Source: Nemertoderma westbladi (Eukaryota > Animalia > Xenacoelomorpha). Taken from it: a stretch of DNA of 64,000 bases. Positions 512 to 62,985 of the stretch are shown piece after piece. Under the pieces are notes generated by a model. That model did not search any database. It was not told the origin of the DNA and worked only from the letters and a program-made list of their open reading frames with translations. The stretch lies in contig JAUCBJ010003176.1 of assembly GCA_032718475.1 (NCBI GenBank), positions 1 through 64,000 on the forward strand, read 5' to 3'. A program made the position numbers and the translations under genes. Within the stretch, counting starts at the first letter, position 1; each line of letters begins with the position of its first letter.

Positions 512-706
512 ATTTCGTGCAACATATTCCGTATCCTCCCGCCCTCCGACAACCCGGACTTCGACCCCGAGGAGGACGACCCCACGTTGGAGACGTGTTG
601 GCCTCACCTCCAGATCGTCTACGAGTTGTTCCTCAGACTGCTGGAGAGTCCGGACTTCCAGCCGACCGTCGCTAAGCGATACATCGATCAACGCTTCGTA
701 TTGCAG
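512..706 (+). CDS. PPP2R5: PP2A B56 (B') regulatory subunit, exon A (first exon in window; upstream exons lie outside)
   Basis: tag|ATT...CAG|gtaaac, 195 nt. Translates [65 protein letters not shown], the hallmark B56 FDPEED.P.LE..WPHLQ segment. Confidence 0.97.
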
Positions 707-984: not shown

Positions 985-1115
985 TTACTGGAATTGTTTG
1001 ACAGTGAAGATCCCAGGGAGAGAGATTTCCTAAAGACCATCCTACACAGAATATATGGGAAATTCCTGTCATTGAGAGCCTTTATTCGCAAACACATAAA
1101 CAATATATTCCTAAG
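985..1115 (+). CDS. PPP2R5: PP2A B56 exon B
   Basis: ttttccag|TTA...CTAAG|gttggt, 131 nt. [43 protein letters not shown](R). Confidence 0.97.
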
Positions 1116-2143: not shown

Positions 2144-2203
2144 ATTTATATTCGAATCTGAAAAATTCAATGGAATTGGCGAACTTTTGGAAATCCTTGG
2201 AAG
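2144..2203 (+). CDS. PPP2R5: PP2A B56 exon C
   Basis: tttttttttcttag|A...GGAAG|gtgaga, 60 nt. FIFESEKFNGIGELLEILG(S); phases match exons B and D. Confidence 0.96.
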
Positions 2204-7900: not shown

Positions 7901-8014
7901 CGAGCTCGCTCGACCTAGTACTAGTATTTTGTATAAGATCCCATTTCCACTGTCCGAGCCTGCTGGACCTAGTACTAGTATTTTGTATAAGATCCCATTT
8001 CCACTGTCCGAGCT
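4935..8014. repeat. 54-bp satellite, left part
   Basis: Unit AGTATTTTGTATAAGATCCCATTTCCACTGTCCGAGCTCGCTCGACCTAGTACT with 53- and 57-bp variants, roughly 57 copies. Confidence 0.97.
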
Positions 8015-15332: not shown

Positions 15333-16832
15333 GAGCTCGCTCGACCTAGTACTAGTATTTTGTATAGGATCCCATTTCCACTATCCGAGCGCGCTGGACC
15401 TAGTACTAGTATTTTGTATAAGATCCCATTTCCTCTGTCCGAGCTCGCTCGACATAGTACTAGTATTTTGTATAAGATCCCATTTCCTCTGTCCGAGCTC
15501 GCTCGACCTAGTACTAGTATTTTGTATAAGATCCCATTTCCTCTGTCCGAGCTCGCTCGACATAGTACTAGTATTTTGTATAAGATCCCATTTCCTCTGT
15601 CCGAGCTCGCTCGACCTAGTACTAGTATTTTGTATAAGATCCCATTTCCTCTGTCCGAGCTCGCTCGACATAGTACTAGTATTTTGTATAAGATCCCATT
15701 TCCACTGTCCGAGCTCGCTGGACCTAGTACTAGTATTTTGTATAAGATCCCATTTCCACTGTCCGAGCTCGCTCGACCTAGTACTAGTATTTTGTATAGA
15801 TCCCATTTCCACTGTCCGAGCTCGCTCGACCTAGTACTAGTATTTTGTATAAGATCCCATTTCCACTGTCCGAGCTCGCTGGACCTAGTACTAGTATTTT
15901 GTATAAGATCCCATTTCCACTGTCCGAGCTCGCTCGACATAGTACTAGTATTTTGTATAAGATCCCATTTCCTCTGTCCGAGCTCGCTCGACCTAGTACT
16001 AGTATTTTGTATAAGATCCCATTTCCACTGTCCGAGCTCGCTTGACCTAGTACTAGTATTTTGTATAAGATCCCATTTCCTCTGTCCGAGCTCGCTCGAC
16101 ATAGTACTAGTATTTTGTATAAGATCCCATTTCCTCTGTCCGAGCTCGCTCGACATAGTACTAGTATTTTGTATAAGATCCCATTTCCTCTGTCCGAGCT
16201 CGCTCGACCTAGTACTAGTATTTTGTATAAGATCCCATTTCCACTGTCCGAGCTCGCTCGACCCAGTACTGTTAGTATTTTGTATAAGATCCCATTTCCA
16301 CTGTCCGAGCTCGCTCGACCCAGTACTGTTAGTATTTTGTATAAGATCCCATTTCCACTGTCCGAGCTCGCTCGACCCAGTACTGTTAGTATTTTGTATA
16401 AGATTCCATTTCCTCTGTCCGAGCTCGCTGGACCTAGTACTAGTATTTTGTATAAGATCCCATTTCCACTGTCCGAGCTCGCTCGACATAGTACTAGTAT
16501 TTTGTATAAGATCCCATTTCCTCTGTCCGAGCTCGCTCGACCTAGTACTAGTATTTTGTATAAGATCCCATTTCCACTGTCCGAGCTCGCTTGACCTAGT
16601 ACTAGTATTTTGTATAAGATCCCATTTCCTCTGTCCGAGCTCGCTCGACATAGTACTAGTATTTTGTATAAGATCCCATTTCCTCTGTCCGAGCTCGCTC
16701 GACATAGTACTAGTATTTTGTATAAGATCCCATTTCCACTGTCCGAGCTCGCTCGACCTAGTACTAGTATTTTGTATAGATCCCATTTCCACTGTCCGAG
16801 CTCGCTCGACCTAGTACTAGTATTTTGTATAG
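15333..16832. repeat. 54-bp satellite, right part
   Basis: Same unit as 4935-8014, resuming in register after the TSD. Confidence 0.97.
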
Positions 16833-17496: not shown

Positions 17497-20400
17497 ATGA
17501 TAAACTGGCAGTTATATTGGAAATATGTGGTTCCATGATAAACTGGCAGTTATATTGGAAATATGTGGTTCTATGATAAACTGGCAGTTATATTGGAAAT
17601 ATGTGGTTCTATGATAAACTGGCAGTTATATTGGAAATATGTGGTTCCATGATAAACTGGCAGTTATATTGGAAATATGTGGTTCTATGATAAACTGGCA
17701 GTTATATTGGAAATATGTGGTTCTATGATAAACTGGCAGTTATATTGGAAATATGTGGTTCTATGATAAACTGGCAGTTATATTGGAAATATGTGGTTCC
17801 ATGATAAACTGGCAGTTATATTGGAAATATGTGGTTCTATGATAAACTGGCAGTTATATTGGAAATATGTGGTTCTATGATAAACTGGCAGTTATATTGG
17901 AAATATGTGGTTCTATGATAAACTGGCAGTTATATTGGAAATATGTGGTTCTATGATAAACTGGCAGTTATATTGGAAATATGTGGTTCTATGATAAACT
18001 GGCAGTTATATTGGAAATATGTGGTTCTATGATAAACTGGCAGTTATATTGGAAATATGTGGTTCTATGATAAACTGGCAGTTATATTGGAAATATGTGG
18101 TTCTATGATAAACTGGCAGTTATATTGGAAATATGTGGTTCCATGATAAACTGGCAGTTATATTGGAAATATGTGGTTCTATGATAAACTGGCAGTTATA
18201 TTGGAAATATGTGGTTCTATGATAAACTGGCAGTTATATTGGAAATATGTGGTTCTATGATAAACTGGCAGTTATATTGGAAATATGTGGTTCTATGATA
18301 AACTGGCAGTTATATTGGAAATATGTGGTTCCATGATAAACTGGCAGTTATATTGGAAATATGTGGTTCTATGATAAACTGGCAGTTATATTGGAAATAT
18401 GTGGTTCTATGATAAACTGGCAGTTATATTGGAAATATGTGGTTCTATGATAAACTGGCAGTTATATTGGAAATATGTGGTTCTATGATAAACTGGCAGT
18501 TATATTGGAAATATGTGGTTCTATGATAAACTGGCAGTTATATTGGAAATATGTGGTTCTATGATAAACTGGCAGTTATATTGGAAATATGTGGTTCTAT
18601 GATAAACTGGCAGTTATATTGGAAATATGTGGTTCTATGATAAACTGGCAGTTATATTGGAAATATGTGGTTCTATGATAAACTGGCAGTTATATTGGAA
18701 ATATGTGGTTCTATGATAAACTGGCAGTTATATTGGAAATATGTGGTTCTATGATAAACTGGCAGTTATATTGGAAATATGTGGTTCTATGATAAACTGG
18801 CAGTTATATTGGAAATATGTGGTTCTATGATAAACTGGCAGTTATATTGGAAATATGTGGTTCTATGATAAACTGGCAGTTATATTGGAAATATGTGGTT
18901 CTATGATAAACTGGCAGTTATATTGGAAATATGTGGTTCTATGATAAACTGGCAGTTATATTGGAAATATGTGGTTCTATGATAAACTGGCAGTTATATT
19001 GGAAATATGTGGTTCTATGATAAACTGGCAGTTATATTGGAAATATGTGGTTCCATGATAAACTGGCAGTTATATTGGAAATATGTGGTTCTATGATAAA
19101 CTGGCAGTTATATTGGAAATATGTGGTTCTATGATAAACTGGCAGTTATATTGGAAATATGTGGTTCTATGATAAACTGGCAGTTATATTGGAAATATGT
19201 GGTTCTATGATAAACTGGCAGTTATATTGGAAATATGTGGTTCTATGATAAACTGGCAGTTATATTGGAAATATGTGGTTCTATGATAAACTGGCAGTTA
19301 TATTGGAAATATGTGGTTCTATGATAAACTGGCAGTTATATTGGAAATATGTGGTTCTATGATAAACTGGCAGTTATATTGGAAATATGTGGTTCTATGA
19401 TAAACTGGCAGTTATATTGGAAATATGTGGTTCTATGATAAACTGGCAGTTATTTTGGAAATATGTGGTTCCATGATAAACTGGCAGTTATATTGGAAAT
19501 ATGTGGTTCCATGATAAACTGGCAGTTATATTGGAAATATGTGGTTCTATGATAAACTGGCAGTTATATTGGAAATATGTGGTTCTATGATAAACTGGCA
19601 GTTATATTGGAAATATGTGGTTCTATGATAAACTGGCAGTTATATTGGAAATATGTGGTTCTATGATAAACTGGCAGTTATATTGGAAATATGTGGTTCT
19701 ATGATAAACTGGCAGTTATATTGGAAATATGTGGTTCTATGATAAACTGGCAGTTATATTGGAAATATGTGGTTCCATGATAAACTGGCAGTTATATTGG
19801 AAATATGTGGTTCTATGATAAACTGGCAGTTATATTGGAAATATGTGGTTCTATGATAAACTGGCAGTTATATTGGAAATATGTGGTTCTATGATAAACT
19901 GGCAGTTATATTGGAAATATGTGGTTCTATGATAAACTGGCAGTTATATTGGAAATATGTGGTTCCATGATAAACTGGCAGTTATATTGGAAATATGTGG
20001 TTCTATGATAAACTGGCAGTTATATTGGAAATATGTGGTTCTATGATAAACTGGCAGTTATATTGGAAATATGTGGTTCTATGATAAACTGGCAGTTATA
20101 TTGGAAATATGTGGTTCTATGATAAACTGGCAGTTATATTGGAAATATGTGGTTCTATGATAAACTGGCAGTTATATTGGAAATATGTGGTTCCATGATA
20201 AACTGGCAGTTATATTGGAAATATGTGGTTCTATGATAAACTGGCAGTTATATTGGAAATATGTGGTTCTATGATAAACTGGCAGTTATATTGGAAATAT
20301 GTGGTTCTATGATAAACTGGCAGTTATATTGGAAATATGTGGTTCTATGATAAACTGGCAGTTATATTGGAAATATGTGGTTCTATGATAAACTGGCAGT

Positions 20401-21238
20401 TATATTGGAAATATGTGGTTCTATGATAAACTGGCAGTTATATTGGAAATATGTGGTTCTATGATAAACTGGCAGTTATATTGGAAATATGTGGTTCTAT
20501 GATAAACTGGCAGTTATATTGGAAATATGTGGTTCTATGATAAACTGGCAGTTATATTGGAAATATGTGGTTCTATGATAAACTGGCAGTTATATTGGAA
20601 ATATGTGGTTCCATGATAAACTGGCAGTTATATTGGAAATATGTGGTTCTATGATAAACTGGCAGTTATATTGGAAATATGTGGTTCTATGATAAACTGG
20701 CAGTTATATTGGAAATATGTGGTTCCATGATAAACTGGCAGTTATATTGGAAATATGTGGTTCTATGATAAACTGGCAGTTATATTGGAAATATGTGGTT
20801 CTATGATAAACTGGCAGTTATTTTGGAAATATGTGGTTCCATGATAAACTGGCAGTTATATTGGAAATATGTGGTTCTATGATAAACTGGCAGTTATATT
20901 GGAAATATGTGGTTCTATGATAAACTGGCAGTTATATTGGAAATATGTGGTTCTATGATAAACTGGCAGTTATATTGGAAATATGTGGTTCTATGATAAA
21001 CTGGCAGTTATATTGGAAATATGTGGTTCCATGATAAACTGGCAGTTATATTGGAAATATGTGGTTCTATGATAAACTGGCAGTTATATTGGAAATATGT
21101 GGTTCTATGATAAACTGGCAGTTATATTGGAAATATGTGGTTCTATGATAAACTGGCAGTTATATTGGAAATATGTGGTTCTATGATAAACTGGCAGTTA
21201 TTTTGGAAATATGTGGTTCTATGGTAAATTGGCAGTTA
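17497..21238. repeat. 38-bp satellite, highly homogeneous
   Basis: Unit ATGATAAACTGGCAGTTATATTGGAAATATGTGGTTCT, roughly 98 copies, mainly one T/C variant. Confidence 0.98.
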
Positions 21239-21585
21239 GGGTAAATCTGTGGTTCAATTTTAACTGGCAGTTATTTTGTAAACTGGAGTTATATTTTACA
21301 TATGCAATTTAACAGTAAACGGCCATATTATCATTTCGATAAAACCGGGAGTTTAATTATTTTGTTTCGAAAAACCCCCACTTTTTTTATCTATAATTTT
21401 AAATTATTTTGTATCTTTTTAAAACCCCCGGTTTAAAAATTAACCACCATTTCAAAATTATAACATGGGTTTAAAAAACAGGACCCGGGGTTTTTTAAAG
21501 AACCCGGGTTGTGTTTTTTCAGTGTAGCTATTAATGTCTCTGTTTTTCTCGTATAACGTCGGATATTATATGTATTATTTTCTAG

Positions 21586-21748
21586 TATTATCAATGGGTT
21601 TGCCTTACCGTTGAAACAGGAACACAAAGTGTTTCTAACAAAGGTGCTACTACCGTTACATACACCACGATGTTTGGGACTCTATCACGCGCAACTGGCT
21701 TACTGTATGGTTCAGTTTATCGAGAAAGACGCCTCTCTTACAGAGCCG
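21586..21748 (+). CDS. PPP2R5: PP2A B56 exon D
   Basis: ttttctag|T...CCG|gtaagt, 163 nt. [54 protein letters not shown]. Confidence 0.97.
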
Positions 21749-22244
21749 GTAAGTCAGTCTTTTGTATATTAATTCATAGTTTATTAAATAAATATTAAGT
21801 AGTTTCAACGAAATGAAATCACCGACCACGAAACCCCGACCGGAAGATTATATTTATGTAATATCCATGCATCATCGTTAATTGAAAGACAAACGGACAG
21901 ACCGACAAATAGACGGACAGGCAGAGGGTGTCTATTCAATAAAATGTTAAAACTGACACTGGAAATGAAATCACCGACCAAGAACACCTGCAAATTGAAT
22001 AATCTAGACAATCTAGGTAATATGTATCCATATTTTTTGGCACAAACAAACAGACCGACCAACACGCGCATACAGACATACAACGTCTATATTCCATCAA
22101 AAGTTAAAACTGAGATCGAGAATGAATTTATCGACCACGGACGCAACATTTAGCAGCGTGTTTCTTTATTTTATGGAGAAATTTGAATAATCCCTCATTT
22201 TCTATAGAAAATAACGGTAAAGTTTGAAAATATTTTGCGAGCTT

Positions 22245-23369
22245 CAGCGTGGTACACTTTTTGTCAGCTTGGACGGGAAACCGTTAACACACTGCGTGGT
22301 ACACTTATTGTCAGCTTGGACGGGAAACGGTTAACACTCAGCGTGGTACACTTATTGTCAGCTTGGAGGGAAACGGTTAACACTCAGCGTGGTACACTTA
22401 TTGTCAGCTTGGACGGGAAACGGTTAACACTCTGCGTGGTACACTTATTGTCAGCTTGGACGGGAAACGGTTAACACTCAGCGTGGTACACGTATTGTCA
22501 GCTTGGACGGGAAACGGTTAACACTCAGCGTGGTACACTTATTGTCAGCTTGGAGGGAAACGGTTAACACTCAACGTGGTACACTTATTGTCAGCTTGGA
22601 TGGGCAACGGTTAACACTCAGCGTGGTACACTTATTGTCAGCTTGGTTGGGAAACGGTTAACACTCAGCGTGGTACACTTATTGTCAGCTTGGACGGGAA
22701 ACGGTTAACACTCAACGTGGTACACTTATTGTCAGCTTGGATGGGCAACGGTTAACACTCAGCGTGGTACACTTATTGTCAGCTTGGACGGGAAACGGTT
22801 AACACTCAGCGTGGTACACTTATTGTCAGCTTGGAGGGAAACGGTTAACACTCAGCGTGGTACACTTATTGTCAGCTTGGACGGGAAACGGTTAACACTC
22901 AGCGTGGTACACTTATTGTCAGCTTGGTTGGGAAACGGTTAACACTCAGCGTGGTACACTTATTGTCAGCTTGGACGGGAAACGGTTAACACTCAACGTG
23001 GTACACTTATTGTCAGCTTGGATGGGCAACGGTTAACACTCAGCGTGGTACACTTATTGTCAGCTTGGTTGGGAAACGGTTAACACTCAGCGTGGTACAC
23101 TTATTGTCAGCTTGGACGGGAAACGGTTAACACTCAACGTGGTACACTTATTGTCAGCTTGGATGGGCAACGGTTAACACTCAGCGTGGTACACTTATTG
23201 TCAGCTTGGACGGGAAACGGTTAACACTCAGCGTGGTACACTTATTGTCAGCTTGGACGGGAAACGGTTAACACTCAGCGTGGTACACTTATTGTCAGCT
23301 TGGACGGGAAACGGTTAACACTTAGCGTGGTACACTTATTGTCAGCTTGGACGGGAAACGGTTAACACT
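22245..23369. repeat. 47-bp minisatellite
   Basis: Unit CAGCGTGGTACACTTATTGTCAGCTTGGACGGGAAACGGTTAACACT, about 24 copies. Confidence 0.97.
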
Positions 23370-23848: not shown

Positions 23849-24019
23849 GTGGTTTCCCGGTTACTCAAATATTGGCCTAAAACATGTAGTCAAAAAGAAA
23901 TAATGTATCTCGGTGAGATTGAGGAGATATTGGATGTGATAGACCCACAGCAGTTCCAGAGCATTATGGTTCCATTGTTCCGACAGATATCCAGATGCGT
24001 CAGCAGCTCGCATTTCCAG
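23849..24019 (+). CDS. PPP2R5: PP2A B56 exon E
   Basis: ttcccaag|GTG...CAG|gtttgt, 171 nt. [57 protein letters not shown]. Confidence 0.97.
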
Positions 24020-24025
24020 GTTTGT

Positions 24026-27000
24026 GTTCCATACAATCCCTATCGTTCCATACAATCCCTATCGTTCCATACAATCCCTGTCGTTCATACAATCCCTATC
24101 GTTCCATACAATCCCTATCGTTCCATACAATCCCTATCATTCCATACAATCCCTATCGCTTCCATACAATCCCTATCGTTCCATACAATCCCTATCGTTC
24201 CATACAATCCCTATCGTCCCATACAATCCATTGAGTTCCATACAATCCCTATTGTTCCTTACAATCCCTATCGTTCCATACAATCCATATGCGTTCCATA
24301 CAATCCCTATTGTTCCTTACAATCCCTATCGTTCCATACAATCCCTATCGTTCCATACAATCCCTATCGTTCCATACAATCCCTATCGTTCCATACAATC
24401 CCTATCGTTCCATACAATCCCTATCGTTCTCATACAATCCCTATCGTTCCATACAATCCCTATCGTTCCATACAATCCCTATCGTTCCATACAATCCCTA
24501 TCGTTCCATACAATCCCTATCGTCCCATACAATCCATTGAGTTCCATACAATCCCTATTGTTCCTTACAATCCCTATCGTTCCATACAATCCCTATCGTT
24601 CCATACAATCCCTATCGTTCCATACAATCCCTATCGTTCCATACAATCCCTATCGTTCCATACAATCCCTATCATTTCATACAATCCCTATCGTTTCATA
24701 CAATCCCTATCGTTTCATACAATCCCTATCGTTCTCATACAATCCCTATCGTTCCATACAATCCCTATCGTTCCATACAATCCCTATCATTCCATACAAT
24801 CCCTATCGTTCCATACAATCCCTATCGTTCCATACAATCCCTATCGTTCCATACAATCCCTATCGTTCCATACAATCCCTATCGTTCCATACAATCCCTA
24901 TCGTTCCATACAATCCCTATCGTTTCATACAATCCCTATCGTTCCATACAATCCCTATCGTTCCAATACAATCCCTATCGTTCCATACAATCCCTATCGT
25001 TCCATACAATCCCTATCGTTCCATACAATCCCTATCGTTCAATACAATCCCTATCGTTCCATACAATCCCTATCGTTCCATACAATCCCTATCGTTCCAT
25101 ACAATCCCTATCGTTCCATACAATCCCTATCGTTCCATACAATCCCTATCGTTCCATACAATCCCTATCGTTCAATACAATCCCTATTGTTCCATACAAT
25201 CCCTATCGTTTCATACAATCCCTATCGTTTCATACAATCCCTATCGTTCAATACAATCCCTATCGTTCCATACAATCCCTATCGTTCCATACAATCCCTA
25301 TCGTTCCATACAATCCCTATCGTTCCATACAATCCCTATCGTTTCATACAATCCCTATCGTTCCATACAATCCCTATCGTTCCAATACAATCCCTATCGT
25401 TCCATACAATCCCTATCGTTCCAATACAATCCCTATTGTTCCATACAATCCCTATCGTTCCATACAATCCCTATCGTTCCATACAATCCATATCGTTCCA
25501 TAAAATCGCTATCGTTCCATACAATCCCTATCGTTCCAATACAATCCCTATTATTCCATACAATCCCTATCGTTCCAATACAATCCCTATCGTTCCATAC
25601 AATCCCTATCGTTCAATACAATCCCTATCGTTCCATACAATCCATATCGTTCCATACAATCCGCTATCGTTCCATACAATCCCTATCGTTCCATACAATC
25701 CCTATCGTTCCATACAATCCCTATCGTTCCATATACAATCTCTATCGTTCCATACAATCCCTATCGTTCCATACAATCCCTATCGTTCCATACAATCCCT
25801 ATCGTTCCATACAATCCCTATCGTTCCATACAATCCCTATCGTTCCATACAATCCCTATCGTTCCATACAATCCCTATCGTTCCATACAATCCCTATCGT
25901 TCAATACTACCCATCCCTATCGTTCCATACAATCCCTATCGTTCCATATAATCCCTATCGTTCCATATACAATCCCTATCGTTCCATACAATCGATATCG
26001 TTCCATACAATCCCTATCGTTCCATATACAATCCCTATTGTTCCATACAATCCCTATCGTTCCATATACAATCCCTATTGTTCCATACAATCCCTATCGT
26101 TCCATATACAATCCCTATTGTTCCATACAATCCCTATCGTTCCATATACAATCCCTATCGTTCCATACAATCGATATCGTTCCATACAATCCCTATCGTT
26201 CCATATACAATCCCTATTGTTCCATACAATCCCTATCGTTCCATATACAATCCCTATTGTTCCATACAATCCCTATCGTTCAATACAATCCCTATCGTTC
26301 CATACAATCCCTATCGTTCCATATAATCCCTATCGTTCCATATACAATCCCTATTGTTCCATACAATCCCTATCGTTCCATATACAATCCCTATTGTTCC
26401 ATACAATCCCTATCGTTCAATACAATCCCTATCGTTCCATACAATCCCTATCGTTCCATACAATCCCTATCGTTCCATATACAATCCCTATCGTTCCATA
26501 CAATCCCTATCGTTCCATACAATCCCTATCGTTCCATACAATCCCTATCGTTCCATATACATTATACAATCCCTATTGTTCCATACAATCCCTATCGTTC
26601 CATATAATCCCTATCGTTCCATATAATCCCTATCGTTCCATATACATTATACAATCCCTATCGTTCCATGCAATCCCTATCGTTCCATACAATCCCTATC
26701 GTTCCATACAATCCCTATCGTTCCATATAATCCCTATCGTTCCATACAATCCCTATCGTTCCATACAATCCCTATCGTTCCATACAATCCCTATCGTTCC
26801 ATACAATCCCTATCGTTCCATACAATCCCTATCGTTCCATATACATTATACAATCCCTATCGTTCCATACAATCCCTATCGTTCCATACAATCCCTATCG
26901 TTCCATACAATCCCTATGCGTTCCATACAATCCCTATCGTTCCATACAATCCCTATCGTTCCATACAATCCCTATGTTCCATACAATCCCTATCGTTCCA

Positions 27001-30000
27001 TATCAATCCCTATCGTTCCATACAATCCCTATCGTTCCATATACAATCCCTATCGTTCCATACAATCCCTATCGTTCCATACAATCCCTATCGTTCCATA
27101 CAATCCCTATCGTTCCATACAATCCCTATCGTTCCATACAATCCCTATCGTTCCATACAATCCCTATCGTTCCATACAATCCCTATCGTTCCATATACAT
27201 TATACAATCCCTATCGTTCCATACAATCCCTATCGTTCCAATACAATCCCTATCGTTCCATACAATCCCTATCGTTCCATACAATCCCTATCGTTCCAAT
27301 ACAATCCCTATCGTTCCATACAATCCCTATCGTTCCATACAATCCCTATCGTTCCATACAATCCCTATCGTTCCATACAATCCCTATCGTTCCATACAAT
27401 CCCTATCGTTCCATACAATCCCTATCGTTCCATATACATTATACAATCCCTATCGTTCCATACAATCCCTATCGTTCCATACAATCCCTATCGTTCCAAT
27501 ACAATCCCTATCATTCCATACAATCCCTATCGTTCCATACAATCCCTATCAGTTCATACAATCCCTATCGTTCCATACAATCCCTATCGTTCCATACAAT
27601 CCCTATCGTTCCATACAATCCCTATCGTTCCATACAATCCCTATCGTTTCATACAATCCCTATCGTTTCATACAATCCCTATCGTTCAATACAATCCCTA
27701 TCGTTCCATACAATCCCTATCGTTCCATACAATCCCTATCGTTCCATACAATCCCTATCATTTCATACAATCCCTATCGTTTCATACAATCCCTATCGTT
27801 CAATACAATCCCTATCGTTTCATACTATCCCTATCGTTCCATACAATCCCTATCGTTCCATACAATCCCTATCGTTCCATACAATCCCTATCGTTCAATA
27901 CAATCCCTATCATTTCATACAATCCCTATCGTTCCATACAATCCCTATCATTTCATACAATCCCTATCGTTTCATACAATCCCTATCGTTCAATACAATC
28001 CCTATCGTTCCATACAATCCCTATCATTTCATACAATCCCTATCGTTTCATACAATCCCTATCGTTCAATACAATCCCTATCGTTTCATACTATCCCTAT
28101 CGTTCCATACAATCCCTATCGTTCCATACAATCCCTATCGTTCCATACAATCCCTATCGTTCAATACAATCCCTATTATTTCATACAATCCCTATCGTTT
28201 CATACAATCCCTATCATTTCATACAATCCCTATCGTTTCATACAATCCCTATCGTTCAATACAATCCCTATCGTTTCATACTATCCCTATCGTTCCATAC
28301 AATCCCTATCGTTCCATACAATCCGTATCGTTTCATACAATCCCTATCGTTCCATACAATCCGTATCGTTCCATACAATCCCTATCATTTCATACAATCC
28401 CTATCGTTTCATACAATCCCTATCGTTTCATACTATCCCTATCGTTCCATACAATCCCTATCGTTCCATACAATCCCTATCGTTCCATACAATCCCTATC
28501 ATTTCATACAATCCCTATCGTTTCATACAATCCCTATCGTTCAATACAATCCCTATCGTTTCATACTATCCCTATCGTTCCATACAATCCCTATCGTTCC
28601 ATACAATCCCTATCGTTCCATACAATCCCTATTGTTCCATACAATCCCTATCGTTCCATATACAATCCCTATTGTTCCATACAATCCCTATCGTTCAATA
28701 CAATCCATATCGTTCCATACAATCCCTATCGTTCCATATACAATCCCTATTGTTCCATACAATCCCTATCGTTCCATATACAATCCCTATTGTTCCATAC
28801 AATCCCTATCGTTCCATATACAATCCCTATTGTTCCATACAATCCCTATCGTTCAATACAATCCCTATCGTTCCATACAATCCCTATCGTTCCATATAAT
28901 CCCTATCGTTCCATATACAATCCCTATTGTTCCATACAATCCCTATCGTTCCATATACAATCCATATTGTTCCATACAATCCCTATCGTTCAATACAATC
29001 CATATCGTTCCATACAATCCCTATCGTTCCATACAATCCCTATCGTTCCATATAAAATCCCTATTGTTCCATACAATCCCTATCGTTCCGTACAATCCCT
29101 ATCGTTCCATACAATCCCTATCGTTCCATACAATCCCTATCGTTCCATATAATCCCTATCGTTCCATATAATCCCTATCGTTCCATATACATTATACAAT
29201 CCCTATCGTTCCATGCAATCCCTATCGTTCCATACAATCCCTATCGTTCCATATAATCCCTATCGTTCCATACAATCCCTATCGTTCCATACAATCCCTA
29301 TCGTCCCATACAATCCATTGAGTTCCATACAATCCCTATTGTTCCTTACAATCCCTATCGTTCCATACAATCCCTATCGTTCCATACAATCCCTATCGTT
29401 CCATACAATCCCTATCGTTCCATACAATCCCTATCGTTCCATACAATCCCCATCGTTCCATACAATCCCTATCGTTCCATACAATCCCTATCGTTCCATA
29501 TAATCCCTATCGTTCCATACAATCCCTATCGTTCCATACAATCCCTATCGTCCCATACAATCCATTGAGTTCCATACAATCCCTATTGTTCCTTACAATC
29601 CCTATCGTTCCATACAATCCCTATCGTTCCATACAATCCCTATCGTTCCATACAATCCCTATCGTTCCATACAATCCCTATCGTTCCATACAATCCCTAT
29701 CATTTCATACAATCCCTATCGTTTCATACAATCCCTATCGTTCAATACAATCCCTATCGTTTCATACTATCCCTATCGTTCCATACAATCCCTATCGTTC
29801 CATACAATCCCTATCGTTCCATACAATCCCTATCGTTCAATACAATCCCTATCATTTCATACAATCCCTATCGTTCCATACAATCCCTATCATTTCATAC
29901 AATCCCTATCGTTTCATACAATCCCTATCGTTCAATACAATCCCTATCGTTTCATACTATCCCTCTCGTTCCATACAATCCCTATCGTTCCATACAATCC

Positions 30001-32393
30001 CTATCATTTCATACAATCCCTATCGTTTCATACAATCCCTATCGTTCAATACAATCCCTATCGTTTCATACTATCCCTATCGTTCCATACAATCCCTATC
30101 GTTCCATACAATCCCTATCGTTCCATACAATCCCTATCGTTCAATACAATCCCTATCATTTCATACAATCCCTATCGTTCCATACAATCCCTATCATTTC
30201 ATACAATCCCTATCGTTTCATACAATCCCTATCGTTCAATACAATCCCTATCGTTCCATACAATCCCTATCATTTCATACAATCCCTATCGTTTCATACA
30301 ATCCCTATCGTTCAATACAATCCCTATCGTTTCATACTATCCCTATCGTTCCATACAATCCCTATCGTTCCATACAATCCCTATCGTTCCATACAATCCC
30401 TATCGTTCAATACAATCCCTATTATTTCATACAATCCCTATCGTTTCATACAATCCCTATCATTTCATACAATCCCTATCGTTTCATACAATCCCTATCG
30501 TTCAATACAATCCCTATCGTTTCATACTATCCCTATCGTTCCATACAATCCCTATCGTTCCATACAATCCGTATCGTTTCATACAATCCCTATCGTTCCA
30601 TACAATCCGTATCGTTCCATACAATCCCTATCATTTCATACAATCCCTATCGTTTCATACAATCCCTATCGTTTCATACTATCCCTATCGTTCCATACAA
30701 TCCCTATCGTTCCATACAATCCCTATCGTTCCATACAATCCCTATCATTTCATACAATCCCTATCGTTTCATACAATCCCTATCGTTCAATACAATCCCT
30801 ATCGTTTCATACTATCCCTATCGTTCCATACAATCCCTATCGTTCCATACAATCCCTATCGTTCCATACAATCCCTATTGTTCCATACAATCCCTATCGT
30901 TCCATATACAATCCCTATTGTTCCATACAATCCCTATCGTTCAATACAATCCATATCGTTCCATACAATCCCTATCGTTCCATATACAATCCCTATTGTT
31001 CCATACAATCCCTATCGTTCCATATACAATCCCTATTGTTCCATACAATCCCTATCGTTCCATATACAATCCCTATTGTTCCATACAATCCCTATCGTTC
31101 AATACAATCCCTATCGTTCCATACAATCCCTATCGTTCCATATAATCCCTATCGTTCCATATACAATCCCTATTGTTCCATACAATCCCTATCGTTCCAT
31201 ATACAATCCATATTGTTCCATACAATCCCTATCGTTCAATACAATCCATATCGTTCCATACAATCCCTATCGTTCCATACAATCCCTATCGTTCCATATA
31301 AAATCCCTATTGTTCCATACAATCCCTATCGTTCCGTACAATCCCTATCGTTCCATACAATCCCTATCGTTCCATACAATCCCTATCGTTCCATATAATC
31401 CCTATCGTTCCATATAATCCCTATCGTTCCATATACATTATACAATCCCTATCGTTCCATGCAATCCCTATCGTTCCATACAATCCCTATCGTTCCATAC
31501 AATCCCTTTCGTTCCATATAATCCCTATCGTTTCATATAATCCCTATCGTTCCATATACATTATACAATCCCTATCGTTCCATATAATCCCTATCGTTCC
31601 ATATAATCCCTATCGTTCCATATACATTATACAATCCCTATCGTTCCATACAATCCCTATCGTTCCATACAATCCCTATCGTTCCATACAATCCCTATCG
31701 TTCCATATAATCCCTATCGTTCCATATAATCCCTATCGTTCCATATACATTATACAATCCCTATCGTTCCATATAATCCCTATCGTTCCATATAATCCCT
31801 ATCGTTCCATATACATTATACAATCCCTATCGTTCCATACAATCCCTATCGTTCCATACAATCCCTATCGTTCCATACAATCCCTATCGTTCCATATAAT
31901 CCCTATCGTTCCATATAATCCCTATCGTTCCATATACATTATACAATCCCTATCGTTCCATACAATCCCTATCGTTCAATACAATCCATATCGTTCCATA
32001 CAATCCCTATCGTTCCATACAATCCCTATCGTTCCATATAAAATCCCTATTGTTCCATACAATCCCTATCGTTCCGTACAATCCCTATCGTTCCATACAA
32101 TCCCTATCGTTCCATACAATCCCTATCGTTCCATATAATCCCTATCGCTCCATATAATCCCTATCGTTCCATATACATTATACAATCCCTATCGTTCCAT
32201 ACAATCCCTATCGTTCCATACAATCCCTATCGTTCAATACAATCCCTATCGTTTCATACAATCCCTATCGTTCCATACAATCCCTATCATTTCATACAAT
32301 CCCTATCGTTTCATACAATCCCTATCGTTCAATACAATCCCTATCGTTTCATACTATCCCTCTCGTTCCATACAATCCCTATCGTTCCATACA
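24026..32393. repeat. 19-bp satellite (8.4 kb) filling a B56 intron
   Basis: Unit CCATACAATCCCTATCGTT with length variants, over 400 copies; starts about 6 nt after the exon E donor. Confidence 0.98.
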
Positions 32394-32571
32394 AACTACC
32401 AATAAGGTCGGTGTAGTTAGTTACACAGAATTTAAAAGTAAATAATTCAGAATAAACTGTAGTTTTTTTTGCTATAACGGATAGTAACAGATAATACGAC
32501 TACCATTAATGGAAACAAAATAAAATTGATTGGTCAGTTAATTGTTTACTTAATTGCCATGGATACCCCAG

Positions 32572-32699
32572 GTAGCGGAGCGAGCTCTGTACTATTGGAA
32601 TAACGAATACATAATGAGTCTTATAGAAGAGAACTGTTACAACATATTACCTATAATGTTTCCGTCGTTATATAAAGTATCTAAGGAACATTGGAACCA
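32572..32699 (+). CDS. PPP2R5: PP2A B56 exon F1 (candidate mutually exclusive exon)
   Basis: ccccag|GTA...AACCA|gtgagt, 128 nt. [42 protein letters not shown](Q). Confidence 0.95.
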
Positions 32700-33335
32700 G
32701 TGAGTCTGTGGTTGAGGTCCCTCCTTATTTACCTTGGTGTTATATCCTTTCTGGTTATATGTTATATACCTTTTGGTTATATGTTATATAGTATCTATGT
32801 TTATTTATATTAAGATCAAGTGATTGGTCAGTGTTATAATACCATTTCTGTCTTTCATTTTTCTCTTACGTCTTTCATATGCCTCACAGTATATTAGGAC
32901 ATAACCATACTCTTATATTCCGCCCGAATATTTATTTACTTCCCTATAATGCATTGTGGTTGTCCTTCACGTTAGAACTCATTCGATTACAGACGTAAGG
33001 TTTCTGAAGTTTGTTACCAATGTTACTGAACATACATTAGCTACCACAATAGCTACTGGACAATTCGGTTACTGCACCTATATTGGCTAGATTTATACAT
33101 CTGTTGCGTTGGAAAAATTGTATGCATTATGGTTGTCGTGGATATTTCCTCTACATTGGTCACCGTGGGTTGCTCTAGGGTTGTTTACATTAGTTGCCCT
33201 GGTTACGTTGTGTACATTAGTTGCCATAAATACATGGCTTATATTGGTTGCCATGGATATCTTATTTACATTGGTTGGCCTGGTTATTTTATTTACATTG
33301 GTTGACCTGGATACATTATTTACATTGGTTGCCAG

Positions 33336-33463
33336 GTAGCGGAACGAGCGCTCTATTACTGGAACAACGAATACATCGTACAAAACTTAGAGGAAAATGG
33401 GACAGAACTAATGCCCCTTCTGTTCCCAGCTTTGTACAAAATATCCAAGGAACATTGGAACGC
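33336..33463 (+). CDS. PPP2R5: PP2A B56 exon F2 (tandem paralog of F1, candidate mutually exclusive exon)
   Basis: ttgccag|GTA...AACGC|gtgagt, 128 nt, same phases as F1. [42 protein letters not shown](A). Confidence 0.9.
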
Positions 33464-34209
33464 GTGAGTGATAGTTGCAGATCATTAGATTCAATTAGAA
33501 TTAACATGAACTGATCAGAGTCATATAATATGACTTTAATTAACATGAACTCATCAGAGTCATATAATATGACTTTAATTAACATGAATTGGACTGTTCG
33601 TTATTTAGCTTATTGGCAGCAAAAAAACACATAATTTCGAAATGATAACACCACCAACCACTTAGTGGGTGAGCCAGAATTTTTATTTTTTGCTTTTAAT
33701 CTTTAGCTACAAGCGTTTAAAAAGTGTCTCTTTCGATATTGTACCACTCCCTCCGCAGTTATTCTTCAACCTTATAGCGAGTTGTTGGTACTGATAGACA
33801 GCCAGAGGATTCCAAGTATGTAAAAACATTTGGATTTGGTTGAAAATACCTGAGACATGGGCATTTGAAAGTTGCATGTATTTTCATCTGCACTGGGCTA
33901 TTTATTCTGTTTAATAAATTCCATTAATCTGAAATATTTTTCTAATGTTCTAGAACATGACTTATTTATTCAATAGAATAAATGGCCTTCAACGGTTGCA
34001 AATATATGCAACTTTCGAATGCTAATATCTCAGCTATTTCCAACCAAATTCAAATGTTTATATATATTTGGAATCCGTTCATGTTGTTCAGCTTTCCATT
34101 GGTATACATGGTATCACTATACACCATGTCCCAGAATATAGTGTCGTAATTCAGTGACACGGCCACCCCCCTACTTTTTTTTACAAATCGTAATGAGATT
34201 GCTTGAAAT

Positions 34210-35362
34210 AATGTAAACTCATAATGTAAACACAGAATGTAAACACAGAATGTAAACAAAGAATGTAAACAAAGAATGTAAACACACATTGTAAACAAAG
34301 AATGTAAACAAAGAATGTTAACAAAGAATGTAAACACAGAATGTAAACAAAGAATGTAAACACAGAATGTTAACAAAGAATGCAAACAAAGAATGTAAAC
34401 ACAGAATGTAAACAAAGAATTTTAACAAAGAATGTAAACACATAATGTAAACAAAGAATGTAAACACATAATGTAAACACATAAAGAATGTAAACACATA
34501 AAGAATGTAAACACATAATGTAAACTCATAATGTAAACACAGAATGTAAACAGAATGTGAACACATAATGTATACACAGAATGTGAACACTTAGTGTAAA
34601 CACAGAATGTAAACAAAGAATGTAAACACAATGTAAAGAAAGAATGTAAACACATAATGTAAACAAAGAATGTAAACACATAATGTGAACACAGATTGTG
34701 AACACATAATGTAAACACAGAATGTAAACAAAGAATGTAAACAAAGAATATTAGCAAAGAATGTAAACACAGAATGTAAACACAGAATGTTAACAAAGAA
34801 TGTAAACAAGGAATCTAAACACAGAATGTAAACAAAGAATTTTAACAAAAAATGTAAACACATAATGTAAACAAAGAATGATTACAAAGAATGTAAACAT
34901 AGAATGTAAACACAGAATGGAAACAAAGAATGTTAACAAAGAATGTAAACAAAGAATGTAAACACAGAATGTAAACAAAGAATTTGAACAAAGAATGTAA
35001 ACACATAATGTAAACACATAATGTAAACACATAATGTAAACAAAGAATGTAAACACAGAAGGTAAACAAAGAACGTTAACAAAGAATGTAAACACAGAAT
35101 GTAAACACAGAATGTAAACAAAGAATGTTAACACAGAATGTTAACAAAGAATATAAACAAAGAATGTAAACAAAGAATGTAAACAAAGAAGTTAAACACA
35201 GAGTGTAAACAAAGAATGTAAACAAAGAATGTAAACACAGAGTGTAAACAAAGAATGTAAACAAAGAATGTAAACATAGAGTGTAAACAAAGAATGTTAA
35301 CAAAGAATGTAAACAAAGAATGTAAACAAAGAATGTAAACAAAGAATGTTAACAAAGAATGT
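34210..35362. repeat. 13-bp minisatellite
   Basis: Unit AAAGAATGTAAAC / ACAGAATGTAAAC, degenerate. Confidence 0.95.
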
Positions 35363-38763: not shown

Positions 38764-38865
38764 AACTATCGTCGCTTTGGTTTACAACGTCCTTAAATCG
38801 TTTATGGAGATGAACAGTAAATTATTCGACGAACTCACATCTAATTACAAGGCTGAACGCCAAAA
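38764..38865 (+). CDS. PPP2R5: PP2A B56 exon G
   Basis: ttctttccag|A...CAAAA|gtgagt, 102 nt. [33 protein letters not shown](K); EHWN.TIVAL marks the alpha/beta/epsilon type. Confidence 0.97.
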
Positions 38866-39541: not shown

Positions 39542-39665
39542 AGAAAAAAAGAAAGAGAGAGAAAGAGAGGAGCTTTGGAAGCGTTTAGAAAAACTCGAAG
39601 TGCAGCAAACTAATCAGTTAGCGAAACCGCGCCAATCAGGTTACAGAGCTATAGCCGCCCAATAG
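39542..39665 (+). CDS. PPP2R5: PP2A B56 terminal exon H
   Basis: tgttttttaag|A. EKKKEREREELWKRLEKLEVQQTNQLAKPRQSGYRAIAAQ*; AATAAA at 39667-39672. Confidence 0.92.
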
Positions 39666-45576: not shown

Positions 45577-48216
45577 TCAAGGTCCCTGAGGTTTAGGACT
45601 TAATTCTTCATGGAACAACTCACAGTAATCCTCAGTGTCTTTGAACAGAGCCACTTGGGTGTTGGAGTTGCACGGCTGTTTCTTGAAGGAACACACGTTG
45701 AGATGGGATCCGGCGATGGCCGTATAAATATAGAAAACGTCCTGGAATTTGGGGTTCATTGTGCGGCTCTCCCATTTCGAAGAGTCGCTGTCTTCCAAAT
45801 GCAGTACGCCCTCATCGGTGTGGATGGTATACACGTCGCTGAGTCCGAAATGGGTTGGTTGCACGTCGCTGGAGGCCTCGCAATGTCTGTCGGAGTTTGG
45901 GAGACGTTTAGTGTGAGAGTTCGATATGGAGACCAGACAGGTGACCCCAGCGTCTGTTTTTATGGTAGCGCACATATCATCTTTAGCTGCTATATTGGTG
46001 GTACTAGTAGATTCAACTGTAACACAAATATGGTACTTCTGGTTTGGTTGATATTTCGCATTAAAGTCAGCGATACGATATAAATAATGGTTCCTCTTCT
46101 CCGAAGCTTCAAACTTAACAACAGTTGGTTTTTCCAGAGTAGCGAAGTGGTGCAATGTAAAACGCTTTCCTTCTAAATCTTTGTCATTATTCGCTTTGAA
46201 GCTCAGAAAGTTGCCATGGAAACTGATAACTTTAATTGGGACAAATTGTGACTCTTTAACTTGTAGGCCTAACTGTATTGTTGACTGAACGCTCGAGGAC
46301 TTAGCTCCCTTAGTAAGTCCCAGCAATGTTTCCGAATACGTAATGTTGTAGGAATACTCACCAGAATCTACTGGGAACTGCGGTTCAATATAAAGTACGT
46401 CTCGCGTTTCATTACGAACTTTAATACGTCGACGTCTCTGACTTGGGATGGATGTATCGTTTACAATGACGCCGGATGGTAAAGTGAAGTTAAACTCTTG
46501 GGGAACCGGTAATTGAGGATATCGGGTCGCTGTAATTTCCATTCGCTTAGACTTGGAGGAATCGGGTTCGATGTGATTGTGAGACGCTGTTATTTTATTA
46601 ATTTTAGGTAAAGTGCATATCGCCTCCAGACCCCGGGACTCCTTCGTCTTGAACTTGTATTTAACAAATTCGTCGATTTGATGGACGAGAATTCCTTTTA
46701 GTTCCGGGGGTTCAGAACAGCGAGCCTTCAGAGCTAAGGATTTTTTCACAAACTTTTTGTATGCCGGGTAAAAGTTGCAGTCGCAGGTCAATGCATTGTT
46801 GAATAATGTAAGAATGTAAATGTGTTTTAATACTTCTTCTGTTAAAAGTTTTTCTATGTTAACAGATGTTATTTTATTATTATTAAGATACAGCTCTGTA
46901 AGGGTTTCACCTTTAAATGCATTATCATCTATTGTGCTGATCTCATTGTGGCTGAGATCTAGGATCTTTAGGTTAGGGTAACCGTGAAACTGTTTTGGAT
47001 GTACCTTCTTTATTAAATTGTGAGCCAAATGAAGGAACCTCAGCTCGGGATACGATGACGTGGTTGGTGCGTTTAAACTGATCTTATTTTTTGTGCAGTT
47101 GAGGCTGCGGAGATTATCTAATTTAACTGAACTATCAAGATAACTCGTCAACTCGTTATTAGAGAAATCCAGAACCGTTAGTTGTGGATTAGTTTTCATA
47201 AACGCTACTGGTAGAGATTTCATACCAGCACTATTGTAACTTACAGTCCATATTTGATGGGAAGCTGTAGTCTTCAAAAAATCGCCTTCACTTTGTAAGC
47301 CGTTCAAACGATAAGTTTTAATCTGAGCGCCAAAATTTTCATTCATCTTTTCTGATACTTTATAAGCCGTCCAGGACAGATCTACAATATTGAGCTTGGG
47401 GAGATCACCCGTGGCTTTACCAATAGCTCCATGGATAACTGACGAATCTAACTTTTTATTTCCCCTTAGAACGATATCTCGAATACCTTTAGTGTAATCA
47501 TCACGTGGATCCCTCAAACAATTACTTTCCAGCTCCTCAATCTCCATAAATGGAAGATTCAATTCTATAACAGGCATCATTGAGGTCGTGTGATCCTTTG
47601 TAAGTCGTCGTTTATCTTTTGCCAATGTGTTGTAACCAGCTTTTAGAACCAATTTACCAGCGTTTCCAGATTTGTGTTTGTAGCCCTTAAATCCACGAGA
47701 TATCTGATAGAAGTCATTGATTTGGTTGTGATCTAAATACAGGATAAACAGCCTAGGGGTGGCAGGAGTGAAGGAACCCGGTTCAATAGAGTGAATGGAA
47801 TTACCTGTCAGGTGCAGAAAATATAACTTCGGCATGGAAGTAAACCAAGTCGATTTAACTTTAGAAATCGTGTTGTACGAGAGATCCAATTCTTCTAAAT
47901 TCTGTAGACTAGAAGCGGCTAAAGTGGGATTGAATTCTTTTAAAGAACTCCGAGTGATTTTGAGCACAATGAGAGTATTCTTTCCAACGGTTTCGTCGTC
48001 AGATAGATGCGTTATAACGGTGTTGGTGAGTTTGATGACTATAACAGTGTCACTTAAACCCAACGGGAACTCAGCAATATGTCTTCCCTCTTGCCCATCG
48101 CATTCAACCATATCAGTTATACAGGTGTCCTTGCAGAATCGACTTAAACAGGTGTACGTAGCATCCACAGATATAAGTAGGCAATAAGCCAGCAGTGTAT
48201 GCAGTATTTTTGACAT
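45577..48216 (-). CDS. Intronless predicted secreted leucine-rich-repeat protein (signal peptide, LRRNT, LRRs, LRRCT, Ig-like, FN3-like, Cys-containing C-terminal domain), 879 aa
   Basis: ATG at 48216: MSKILHTLLAYCLLISVDA signal peptide; LRRs such as LEELDLSYNTI and LKILDLSHNEI; LRRCT NNALTCDC...CSEPPELKG; DSGEY Ig-like motif; YQPNQKYHICV FN3-like motif; no transmembrane helix. TATAAA (minus) near 48292-48297 and AATAAA (minus) at 45298-45303. Confidence 0.9.
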   Translation of the reverse strand: MSKILHTLLAYCLLISVDATYTCLSRFCKDTCITDMVECDGQEGRHIAEFPLGLSDTVIVIKLTNTVITHLSDDETVGKNTLIVLKITRSSLKEFNPTLAASSLQNLEELDLSYNTISKVKSTWFTSMPKLYFLHLTGNSIHSIEPGSFTPATPRLFILYLDHNQINDFYQISRGFKGYKHKSGNAGKLVLKAGYNTLAKDKRRLTKDHTTSMMPVIELNLPFMEIEELESNCLRDPRDDYTKGIRDIVLRGNKKLDSSVIHGAIGKATGDLPKLNIVDLSWTAYKVSEKMNENFGAQIKTYRLNGLQSEGDFLKTTASHQIWTVSYNSAGMKSLPVAFMKTNPQLTVLDFSNNELTSYLDSSVKLDNLRSLNCTKNKISLNAPTTSSYPELRFLHLAHNLIKKVHPKQFHGYPNLKILDLSHNEISTIDDNAFKGETLTELYLNNNKITSVNIEKLLTEEVLKHIYILTLFNNALTCDCNFYPAYKKFVKKSLALKARCSEPPELKGILVHQIDEFVKYKFKTKESRGLEAICTLPKINKITASHNHIEPDSSKSKRMEITATRYPQLPVPQEFNFTLPSGVIVNDTSIPSQRRRRIKVRNETRDVLYIEPQFPVDSGEYSYNITYSETLLGLTKGAKSSSVQSTIQLGLQVKESQFVPIKVISFHGNFLSFKANNDKDLEGKRFTLHHFATLEKPTVVKFEASEKRNHYLYRIADFNAKYQPNQKYHICVTVESTSTTNIAAKDDMCATIKTDAGVTCLVSISNSHTKRLPNSDRHCEASSDVQPTHFGLSDVYTIHTDEGVLHLEDSDSSKWESRTMNPKFQDVFYIYTAIAGSHLNVCSFKKQPCNSNTQVALFKDTEDYCELFHEELSPKPQGP

Positions 48217-50099
48217 TATAAACTTCAAAGGTTATATAGGCCGACACCATATAGATAATCGAACTTTCGAAATATATTTACAGTTTAGGTATTTATAGTG
48301 GTTAGGTCCTGGCGTATTAATTAGGTCCTATCTAGCAGCTATTTTTAACATAACAATAAATGAAAATAAAAACATAAGTTATTGCAATTTAAATTTTGAT
48401 CCTGATGTCTAAGTGTAACCGTAGCGGTAATTCAACAAAATTAAATGTATCGATCCGGCCTTTAGGCTCATAATGCGCGAGGACCTAAAGCTACATTACA
48501 CTTACACCTTACATTATACATTGCCCGTAAGGGAAACAGGGACACCACTTCAAGCATTAGTATAGTCATAGTCTAGGTAGCAAATTTTTTATAATATGGT
48601 TTCTAAAGTTGTCTTTGTGTGCTTCATGTATTGTATTGTACTTTATTAAAGTTCTCGAACATTTTTCAGATATTTTTTATGGAATATCATTATATTCCAG
48701 TAGCACATCATTTATTATGTTAGATGGATGGTACTGGTCTGGTAGTACAGTACGTGTGGACTAATTCCCTTACAAATGGCTACCGGTAATAGGACAGCGG
48801 TAGGGCCAGGGGTGAAAATCCCCGAATAATCTACTGCAGCAAAGAATCTTTGTAAAACTGAATTTATCAAGAAGGACTACCGGTACAGCACTAAAATTCT
48901 AAAAGCCGAATATAAATTACGTTGAACATTATAATGCTAGAGCAACCAAAAGTCAAAAACCTAATTTATTCAATTCAAACAATGGAATGTTCATGAATGT
49001 TTATATGTGTTGTCACGGAAACGCCATGAAGCTTCTGTAGGGAATTTTTTGTGTCAGTGCATGTAAATAACTTGCTCCACGTAGAGGACCGTTTTAGCAT
49101 CGAATTTGTGGGGATGGAGGGGCTGGGCTGATAATTTATTGAGTGTAACGTAAACAATTCCAATAATTACCAGTTATGAGTAGGGCCTTAGGGCCTACTG
49201 CTTAGCATGCTTCAACGCGGTTTGGTGGTATCTGGTTCTACCAAATCTGGTACGTGAAATAACCTGGGCTATACGGGTAGCTTACATAGCTCTAGTATTC
49301 ATAAAGTGCTAAATATTCATAATCATTTAACTATATTTATTGTTACCTTATTGAGTTATTTTGCCGGTTAATTAACCCGCAGACAGGTGTTGGTGCCCGC
49401 GGGTTAAAATACCCGGGAAATGAACTCAACAATAGGCGAAGATGTTATACCGCTCCAGGGTAAAATCGACGCAAATAGGAATAGCATCTGATCACTCCCA
49501 AAAATACAACTGTAACCTGTAAAACTATTGATTTTCATTTATTACTTTGGTTAGAATAATGTGCCATTGTAACATATTAACAATAATTTAACATTGAGTC
49601 GACATATTAATTCACCGAGATGAGATCTGCGTCCAATTCCACTCCCCCACCCCCCCCCCCCCGTTTCTCTACAGGTATCGATATTTCCTGAATAATTTAT
49701 CTGGCCGTTGCGTTGGGTGGTCGAGGGTGCGTTTGGGGTGGGAGGGGGGGGGGGGGGGGGGGGACTTAAAAGTCGCGGTCCTGCTAAACTCCCCAAAGAA
49801 CCCAAAAAAACCCCAAAAACCCAAGAGAATCCAATAGTACCCAAAAATATAACCCAAAAGAACCAAATACTGTAGACGTGTATAATGCAATTGGTTATGC
49901 CAGATTTGTTCAACTCGACTGATTCAATAATCCCATAGCAACAAACCACGTGGTTTGGAGAGATATGAGATATTAATTTCAAGAAAATTACGCGATTCCT
50001 AAATTTGTACACTACCCGGTTAAAAAGTACGCATGTGATGGGATTAGTCCTACAATGGCGCCAATAAAAGATACGTTATTTTCTCTCAACATCTCAATA

Positions 50100-62621: not shown

Positions 62622-62985
62622 TTCTAAGAGGACTATAATTTTCTTTTTGAATCCGCCCCGTGGTGTCGTTTTGTGTCTTTGTTTCTTTGTATTATCTTTA
62701 CTATTATTGGTATTGTGGTGGTCAATTATTTTCCGAAGAATCGGCGAAAGGAGTAGAATATTTGTAATGTAAATATCTTGTGATAAAGTTATTAAGTTGT
62801 CTTAGGCATATTTGTGTATATCATGTACGTATAAGATGTTTCATCGAAATATATAACATAAATAAATTTAAGGTCGTGGTGGGGAGGGCTGCTATGTCTC
62901 ATATGATTGAATAATTAATTTAGCTGTACTTGTTCTCAAATTCTATTTATATATTTATTATTTAAATTTAACTTATTATTTTCGA

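Follow-up and report, generated by a model that had tools for sequence, protein, structure and literature searches.

A PP2A B56 gene of Nemertoderma westbladi carries two tandem copies, F1 and F2, of one internal exon, and we consider it probable that these copies are spliced one at a time, yielding two subunits of equal length that would share the same predicted PP2A assembly while differing in partner binding or location. The gene lies in the window, by which we mean the whole 64,000-nucleotide stretch of DNA that was analysed. Its exons, A to H, were mapped by homologues using tblastn and splice sites, and doubling is limited to exon F within this set. The features on which the argument depends are as follows.

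512..706, plus strand: coding exon A, the first in the window (tblastn and splice sites)
985..1115, plus strand: coding exon B (homologue mapping)
2144..2203, plus strand: coding exon C (homologue mapping)
21586..21748, plus strand: coding exon D (homologue mapping)
23849..24019, plus strand: coding exon E, with a phase-0 end at the HFQ loop (homologue mapping)
24026..32394, unstranded: 19-nt satellite of about 444 copies, making up most of the E–F1 intron (repeat scan)
32572..32699, plus strand: exon F1, the canonical copy, 36 of 42 residues as in the family consensus
33184..33333, plus strand: 27-nt repeat of about 5.6 copies, reaching into the F2 acceptor
33336..33463, plus strand: exon F2, the derived copy, 30 of 42 residues as in the consensus
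38764..38865, plus strand: coding exon G, common to both forms
39542..39665, plus strand: coding exon H, the last, ending with the stop codon

With either F1 or F2, reading from exon A runs open through 357 residues until the stop at 39665. A further B56 exon, preceding exon A, likely lies close to the end of another contig (C2269, locus L012).

The initial annotation had described two 128-nt exons, entered in phase 0 and left in phase 2, with cag acceptors and GTGAGT donors, and we found both the coordinates and the signals to be exact, including the end of exon E at 24019 and the start of exon G at 38764. The two copies share 29 of 43 residues if the junction codon (Gln with F1, Ala with F2) is counted and 29 of 42 whole codons, as reported, and they are identical at 85 of 128 nucleotides. 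Because both translations match Pfam B56 positions 318–359 (E = 3e-16 for F1 and 3e-14 for F2), the pair is not a product of chance. Equal length, matching splice sites and frame, homology and a shared structural region, the properties by which homologous mutually exclusive exons are recognized in the available text of PMC3228551, are all present in the pair.

Including both copies or neither shifts the reading frame, as had been claimed, and each error leads to a premature stop. With both, translation would halt as soon as F2 begins, at its first codon, which lies 226 nt ahead of the last junction; with neither, the stop comes 69 nt ahead of it, inside exon G. Nonsense-mediated decay acts on stops lying more than about 50–55 nt before the last junction, and both stops lie beyond this threshold. 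Frame-enforced, exclusive use of F1 and F2 is thus the likely mode, judging from the DNA, as the initial annotation had argued. Messages containing both copies or neither would be removed by decay, with F1 serving as the default form and F2 as the regulated one.

Other routes to exclusivity were also considered. Steric hindrance calls for the second exon's branch point to lie no more than 50 nt from the donor of the first, and it is unlikely here because the F1–F2 intron measures 636 nt and the AG-free zone before F2 only 113 nt. A search of the introns for docking and selector duplexes, run as a test on this single assembly, returned best pairings for which 36, 12 and 12 of 40 shuffles did equally well or better. 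This would leave frameshift followed by decay among the known routes, and in human clusters lengths that shift the frame are the most frequent arrangement (377 of 629 in the part of PMC5740500 available to us). The donors of both copies are ordinary GTGAGT sites. The acceptors had been portrayed as weak in the manner of regulated exons, and their tracts are indeed poor (longest pyrimidine run 3 nt, pyrimidine fraction 0.55–0.60), but this does not mark out F1 and F2 because single-copy exons score alike: the exon A acceptor also has a longest run of 3 nt and a fraction of 0.60, and exons B and D likewise reach 0.60.

The pattern of substitution between the copies indicates that both have been maintained. 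Seven of the first 14 codons differ, every one silently, which bears out an earlier observation. Over the whole exon, silent sites are saturated (pS 0.79 vs pN 0.20; Fisher p 1.4e-8), and outside codons 15–29 the contrast is sharper still (pN 0.03 vs pS 0.72), with 13 silent and 2 conservative changes in those 27 codons. Since F1 alone might drive a pairwise ratio, we simulated a null in which F1 evolved under purifying selection and F2 drifted freely from the duplication onward (18 settings, 20,000 runs each). No setting of this null matched the real exons in more than 1 of its 20,000 runs, and tripling the silent rate on the F1 branch raised the share of matching runs to no more than 0.2%. 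We therefore conclude that F2 was retained as coding for most of its history. The proposal that both copies are under purifying selection was in this way upheld by the pS/pN contrast and by the simulation, and the two exons appear to be an old tandem duplication, both copies of which have been kept by selection.

Such divergence also bears on whether the pair could reflect alleles misplaced in tandem by the assembler, or an F2 inserted from another B56 paralogue, both of which we regard as extremely improbable. Fragmentation of the assembly into 9,163 contigs and an abundance of satellites in the introns are conditions in which an artefact might arise, but with a nucleotide identity of 66%, saturated silent sites and flanks sharing short motifs only, the copies cannot be alleles. 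As for insertion, F2 shares 69% identity with F1, compared with identities of 55%, 38% and 29% with the assembly's three paralogues.

To place each copy within its family, we assembled 135 distinct alpha/beta/epsilon-type segments from proteins and loci, a set of best matches and hence biased toward conserved ones. These homologous segments agree with the consensus at 31–41 of 42 residues, a range that contains F1 and lies just above F2. Asn17, Leu18, Gly22, Glu24 and the junction Ala43 of F2 are each absent from all 135 segments, while F1 has a single such residue (Val36) and is also unusual at positions 22–24. An Asn in F2 stands where 135 of 135 segments have Leu, Met or Phe, and this change could destabilise the fold.

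These oddities would suit a history in which F2 was long a working alternative exon and is now silent or decaying, with F1 alone in use; its consensus match is below that of every homologous segment, five of its residues are without parallel among them, and its acceptor is embedded in the 27-nt repeat. We nevertheless think this unlikely. F2 has an open frame, its exact length and intact cag and GTGAGT signals, the 27 codons that flank the middle block have gained only two changes, both conservative, and F2 carries the family majority residue at positions 32 and 36, where F1 departs from it. Neutral decay since the duplication is rejected by the simulation, and a very recent loss remains compatible with it.

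Within the exon, 11 of the 13 differences between F1 and F2 fall in codons 15–29 (p 0.00035 against a uniform spread, a value overstated in that the family itself is variable at 15–16 and 22–26). We located them on a predicted model of a homologue (P0001); the model agrees with solved B56 structures. In it, exon positions 12–20 form a short helix and positions 22–39 a long helix running to the HWN loop (pLDDT 89–94). The short helix, which corresponds to human B56alpha 374–386, and the beginning of the next helix are the parts that are altered. Both helices remain amphipathic in F2 (moments 0.52 and 0.41 vs 0.51 and 0.37 in F1), and the short helix is more polar in F2 than in F1. A likeness between the F2 middle and the exon-D repeat came to approximately zero bits, which we took as chance.

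Contacts of B56 with subunits A and C are mostly in intra-repeat loops, for example at the His of the HFQ loop, according to the portions of PMC4687035 available, and the available text of PMC6398977 has the HWN loop adjoining the catalytic domain. From the order of the helices in the model, the rewired stretch would sit at the end of the repeat that lies away from these catalytic-facing loops. Conserved exon ends would preserve the post-HFQ helix and the HWN loop toward the catalytic subunit, while F2 would reshape the short helix and the beginning of the long helix that follows.

In human B56alpha, the small helix 374–386 is required for repression of kinetochore binding (PMC6398977, sections available). 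It is equivalent to exon positions 8–20 and is overlapped by the rewired stretch, with four consecutive residues differing between F1 and F2 at exon positions 15–18 (alpha 381–384). Human alpha and gamma differ at four positions within 374–386, and just one of these also differs between F1 and F2, so that F2 does not imitate gamma. The link to localisation is thus one of position and does not hold residue by residue. Because the equivalent human helix helps to repress kinetochore binding, we would expect F2 most likely to retune docking partners, without making the subunit gamma-type.

A more specific and decidedly tentative proposal is that two PP2A-B56 holoenzymes arise from one gene through exchange of the helix that restrains human B56alpha from kinetochores, F2 lifting the brake on LxxIxE and kinetochore docking in chosen tissues such as the germline or stem cells; we think it rather doubtful as it stands. 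B56 isoforms have an identical LxxIxE pocket and different localisation, and whether a partner or a conformation represses docking in B56alpha was left open by the authors in the available part of PMC6398977. If the proposal were true, the exon pair would be a natural chimaera pointing to the partner or conformation behind isoform specificity. A helix swap selected within one gene also provides a ready sequence pair for tests in human B56alpha.

The initial annotation had instead emphasized the shugoshin-binding surface and the loop that distinguishes human paralogues. In the excerpts of PMC6398977 available, the localisation loop is defined by alpha E405, P409, V412 and A413 against gamma T, K, H and G. 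Exon F does end at this loop, and its junction residue, Gln in F1 as in 111 of the 135 segments compared, becomes in F2 an Ala that 0 of 135 have, which could suggest that the pair toggles shugoshin binding and stands in for the centromere/kinetochore split of B56 paralogues. However, three of the four positions are unaltered, and the fourth takes up a residue that neither human type has: E is present in both forms, the equivalent of 409 is Gln or Ala and not human Pro or Lys, and the V and A positions lie in shared exon G, which carries the remainder of the EPVA-equivalent loop. The Sgo2 binding region (alpha 405–453, in the available text of PMC6398977) is likewise nearly all within shared exons. 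Five Sgo1-interface residues are given in the part of PMC8256288 available, and we placed them on B56gamma Y375, H387, Y391, L394 and M398 by our own +10 shift; by this mapping the first alone lies in exon F, where it is Tyr in both F1 and F2, and the other four of the five lie in exon G. Since the Tyr is identical and the loop nearly the same in both forms, the pair does not toggle the shugoshin loop, and the claim of a loop switch failed. The assembly holds a shugoshin-like C-terminal motif just below the Pfam cut-off (C3179:71359-71427, L095; 22.8 vs 23.3 bits), which speaks for the toggle, as well as a paralogue with the TKHG-type loop (L005), which speaks against it; on balance, we judge the toggle improbable. 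The L095 motif ends a long low-complexity open frame, which is a candidate shugoshin gene.

We also considered whether F2 might act as a terminal exon, with read-through of its donor giving a truncated B56 that keeps LxxIxE binding and loses the last helices. A TGA lies in frame directly after the F2 junction codon, and several of the solved peptide-bound B56gamma chains stop near this position (the matches to 5jja and 5k6s end at exon position 38). Yet read-through from F1 meets the same stop, as the two copies share the GTGAGT donor and its phase of 2, and the donor is intact in both copies despite saturated silent sites, which makes this use of F2 very unlikely.

Exclusive splicing of F1 and F2 remains our preferred reading, and its setting depends on which B56 gene carries it. 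In a quick IQ-TREE analysis the window protein fell inside a 37-row alpha/beta/epsilon group (SH-aLRT 99), with one epsilon-like row (P0005) outside the 37, and a group comprising L005, L090 and L093 was separate at 100. Its best identity is 84% to epsilon-like proteins and 68% to L005. These comparisons place the window gene in the B56 alpha/beta/epsilon type (B56-1 subfamily). Three further B56 genes are present in the assembly, all intronless.

C1861:152824-154056: L005, of the gamma/delta type, its loop reading exactly TKHG (tblastn and tree)
C5:32045-33355: L006, a divergent B56, intronless
C7081:16943-18118: L007, a divergent B56, intronless

The N-terminus of L005 resembles that of animal B56delta by sequence comparison, and we take its C-terminus to be similar to that of B56delta as well. 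L006 and L007 are 36–38% identical to the window protein, with branches too long for placement and altered surroundings of HFQ and HWN. All three are possibly retrogenes with special roles. A processed copy carrying F2 was not found among the at least 10 family matches and at least 5 F2 matches in the assembly. It had been proposed that this animal diversifies B56 by an exon switch rather than by gene duplication; given a TKHG-type paralogue and two divergent B56 genes in the same assembly, that opposition does not hold, and the exon pair supplements gene duplication without replacing it.

Protein searches returned no F2 orthologue among the best 120 of 1,061 longer matches and all 25 short matches. 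The best match among the listed proteins agrees with F2 at 31 of 42 residues, and of the 11 middle residues specific to F2 no listed protein has more than 3. Two candidates were set aside: P0121 owes its high score to a doubled short N-terminal piece, and a variant in a bivalve protein (P0013) is carried by both isoforms of its gene and so is no isoform switch. A second copy of exon F was likewise absent from the best 80 of 465 metagenome loci, a weak survey in that most of the loci fuse exon F with exon G and few are genomic with sufficient flank; 51 of the 80 appear to be genomic DNA, flanks of 800 nt or more on either side are present in 21, and an intron following exon F is shared by only 3. 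Additional tblastn matches (L042 and L050) proved to be noise and not second exon copies. One 58-residue ENA record (P0266) is an exon-sized B56 fragment with F-like borders and a rewired middle; by its end motif its nearest kin are the canonical fragments P0253, P0259 and P0261, and it could represent, in some other animal, either a second copy of independent origin or a paralogue.

Exon pairs of this kind are well known, and human PKM is a close parallel, with two homologous internal exons of 167 nt and phase 0–2 (available part of PMC5740500) that are likewise equal in length and phase, not divisible by three and swap a structured part of the protein. The gene family differs, however, and exclusive use in the window gene is predicted from DNA alone. 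What appears new is the occurrence of this splicing type in the conserved B56 core. PPP2R5 had no entry in the accessible supplements of two human catalogues (PMC8373072 and PMC5740500), in which the controls PKM and CACNA1C were present, and the literature searched, which comprised titles and abstract openings and excluded subscription journals, invertebrate catalogues of mutually exclusive exons and bioRxiv supplements, contained no published exon pair of the PPP2R5 type.

Splicing is already recognized as a source of B56 diversity, through an alternative first exon in B56delta/gamma and the gamma1/2/3 tails, but the variants in the available text of PMC2257934 alter the variable termini, whereas F1 and F2 alter the conserved core. 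Human B56alpha and epsilon (PPP2R5A/E; PDB 6NTS, 8UWB) belong to the same subfamily and have the same fold as the window gene; F1 has the canonical sequence for exon F, and exon F covers the small helix 374–386 and E405 of the localisation loop. Between human alpha/epsilon and gamma/delta this region varies from gene to gene (PMC6398977, available part), in contrast to the window gene, where it varies within one gene. F2 is not gamma-like, as it retains KEHWN and the EE with which the short helix closes.

Related precedents may exist among epsilon-like RefSeq isoform pairs of oyster-type animals and Lingula (P0227/P0230, P0020/P0233 and P0057/P0084), in which only a short internal core block differs, the pattern expected of alternative internal exons, and lengths are equal or near-equal. 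Unlike F1 and F2, these blocks are equivalent to exons D and A and contain only 3–8 changed columns, and they may have arisen by exon duplication. Three identical changes occur in both oyster-type pairs, which suggests that the exon-D region has an alternative exon that is conserved, and the pairs together suggest that core exon swaps may recur in invertebrate B56 genes. The F1/F2 case comes so far from one assembly; it implies that the conserved core of B56, besides its termini, is open to diversification by splicing.

Several other features of the window deserve mention. The B56 introns consist mostly of satellites with units of 13–54 nt (4935-8014, 15333-16831, 17497-21282, 22244-23369, 24026-32394 and 34206-35362); the 19-nt array begins 6 nt past the exon E donor, and a 54-nt unit is present twice inside one intron. 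The core of the 27-nt repeat at 33184..33333 is similar to the 17 nt directly upstream of the F1 acceptor (32550-32566). The 12-mer TTRCCATGGATA has three exact copies in the window, all near B56 exon borders (after exon B at 1121, before F1 at 32554 and before F2 at 33248), with a total count not above chance; at one mismatch the shared acceptor motif has 5 matches against 2.1 expected, a number reached in 6 of 100 shuffles and hence not significant. A 113-nt inverted repeat at 33807-34076, 81% complementary with a 44-nt spacer, lies 340 nt past F2 and is probably the relic of a small transposon.

Beyond the B56 gene and convergent to it, an 884-codon open frame with leucine-rich repeats occupies 45577-48231 on the minus strand (Pfam LRR_8, E = 4e-36), and its predicted product is likely an extracellular LRR protein. 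The open frames at 51384-51998 and 53756-54268, for which Pfam gave no convincing match, contain motifs that by eye we take to resemble fragments of a retroelement reverse transcriptase. Finally, a GC-rich repeat of 12–15 nt at 61810-62640 leaves open frames of 200–274 codons in all six frames, and its putative plus-strand products are rich in Pro, Ala and Val.
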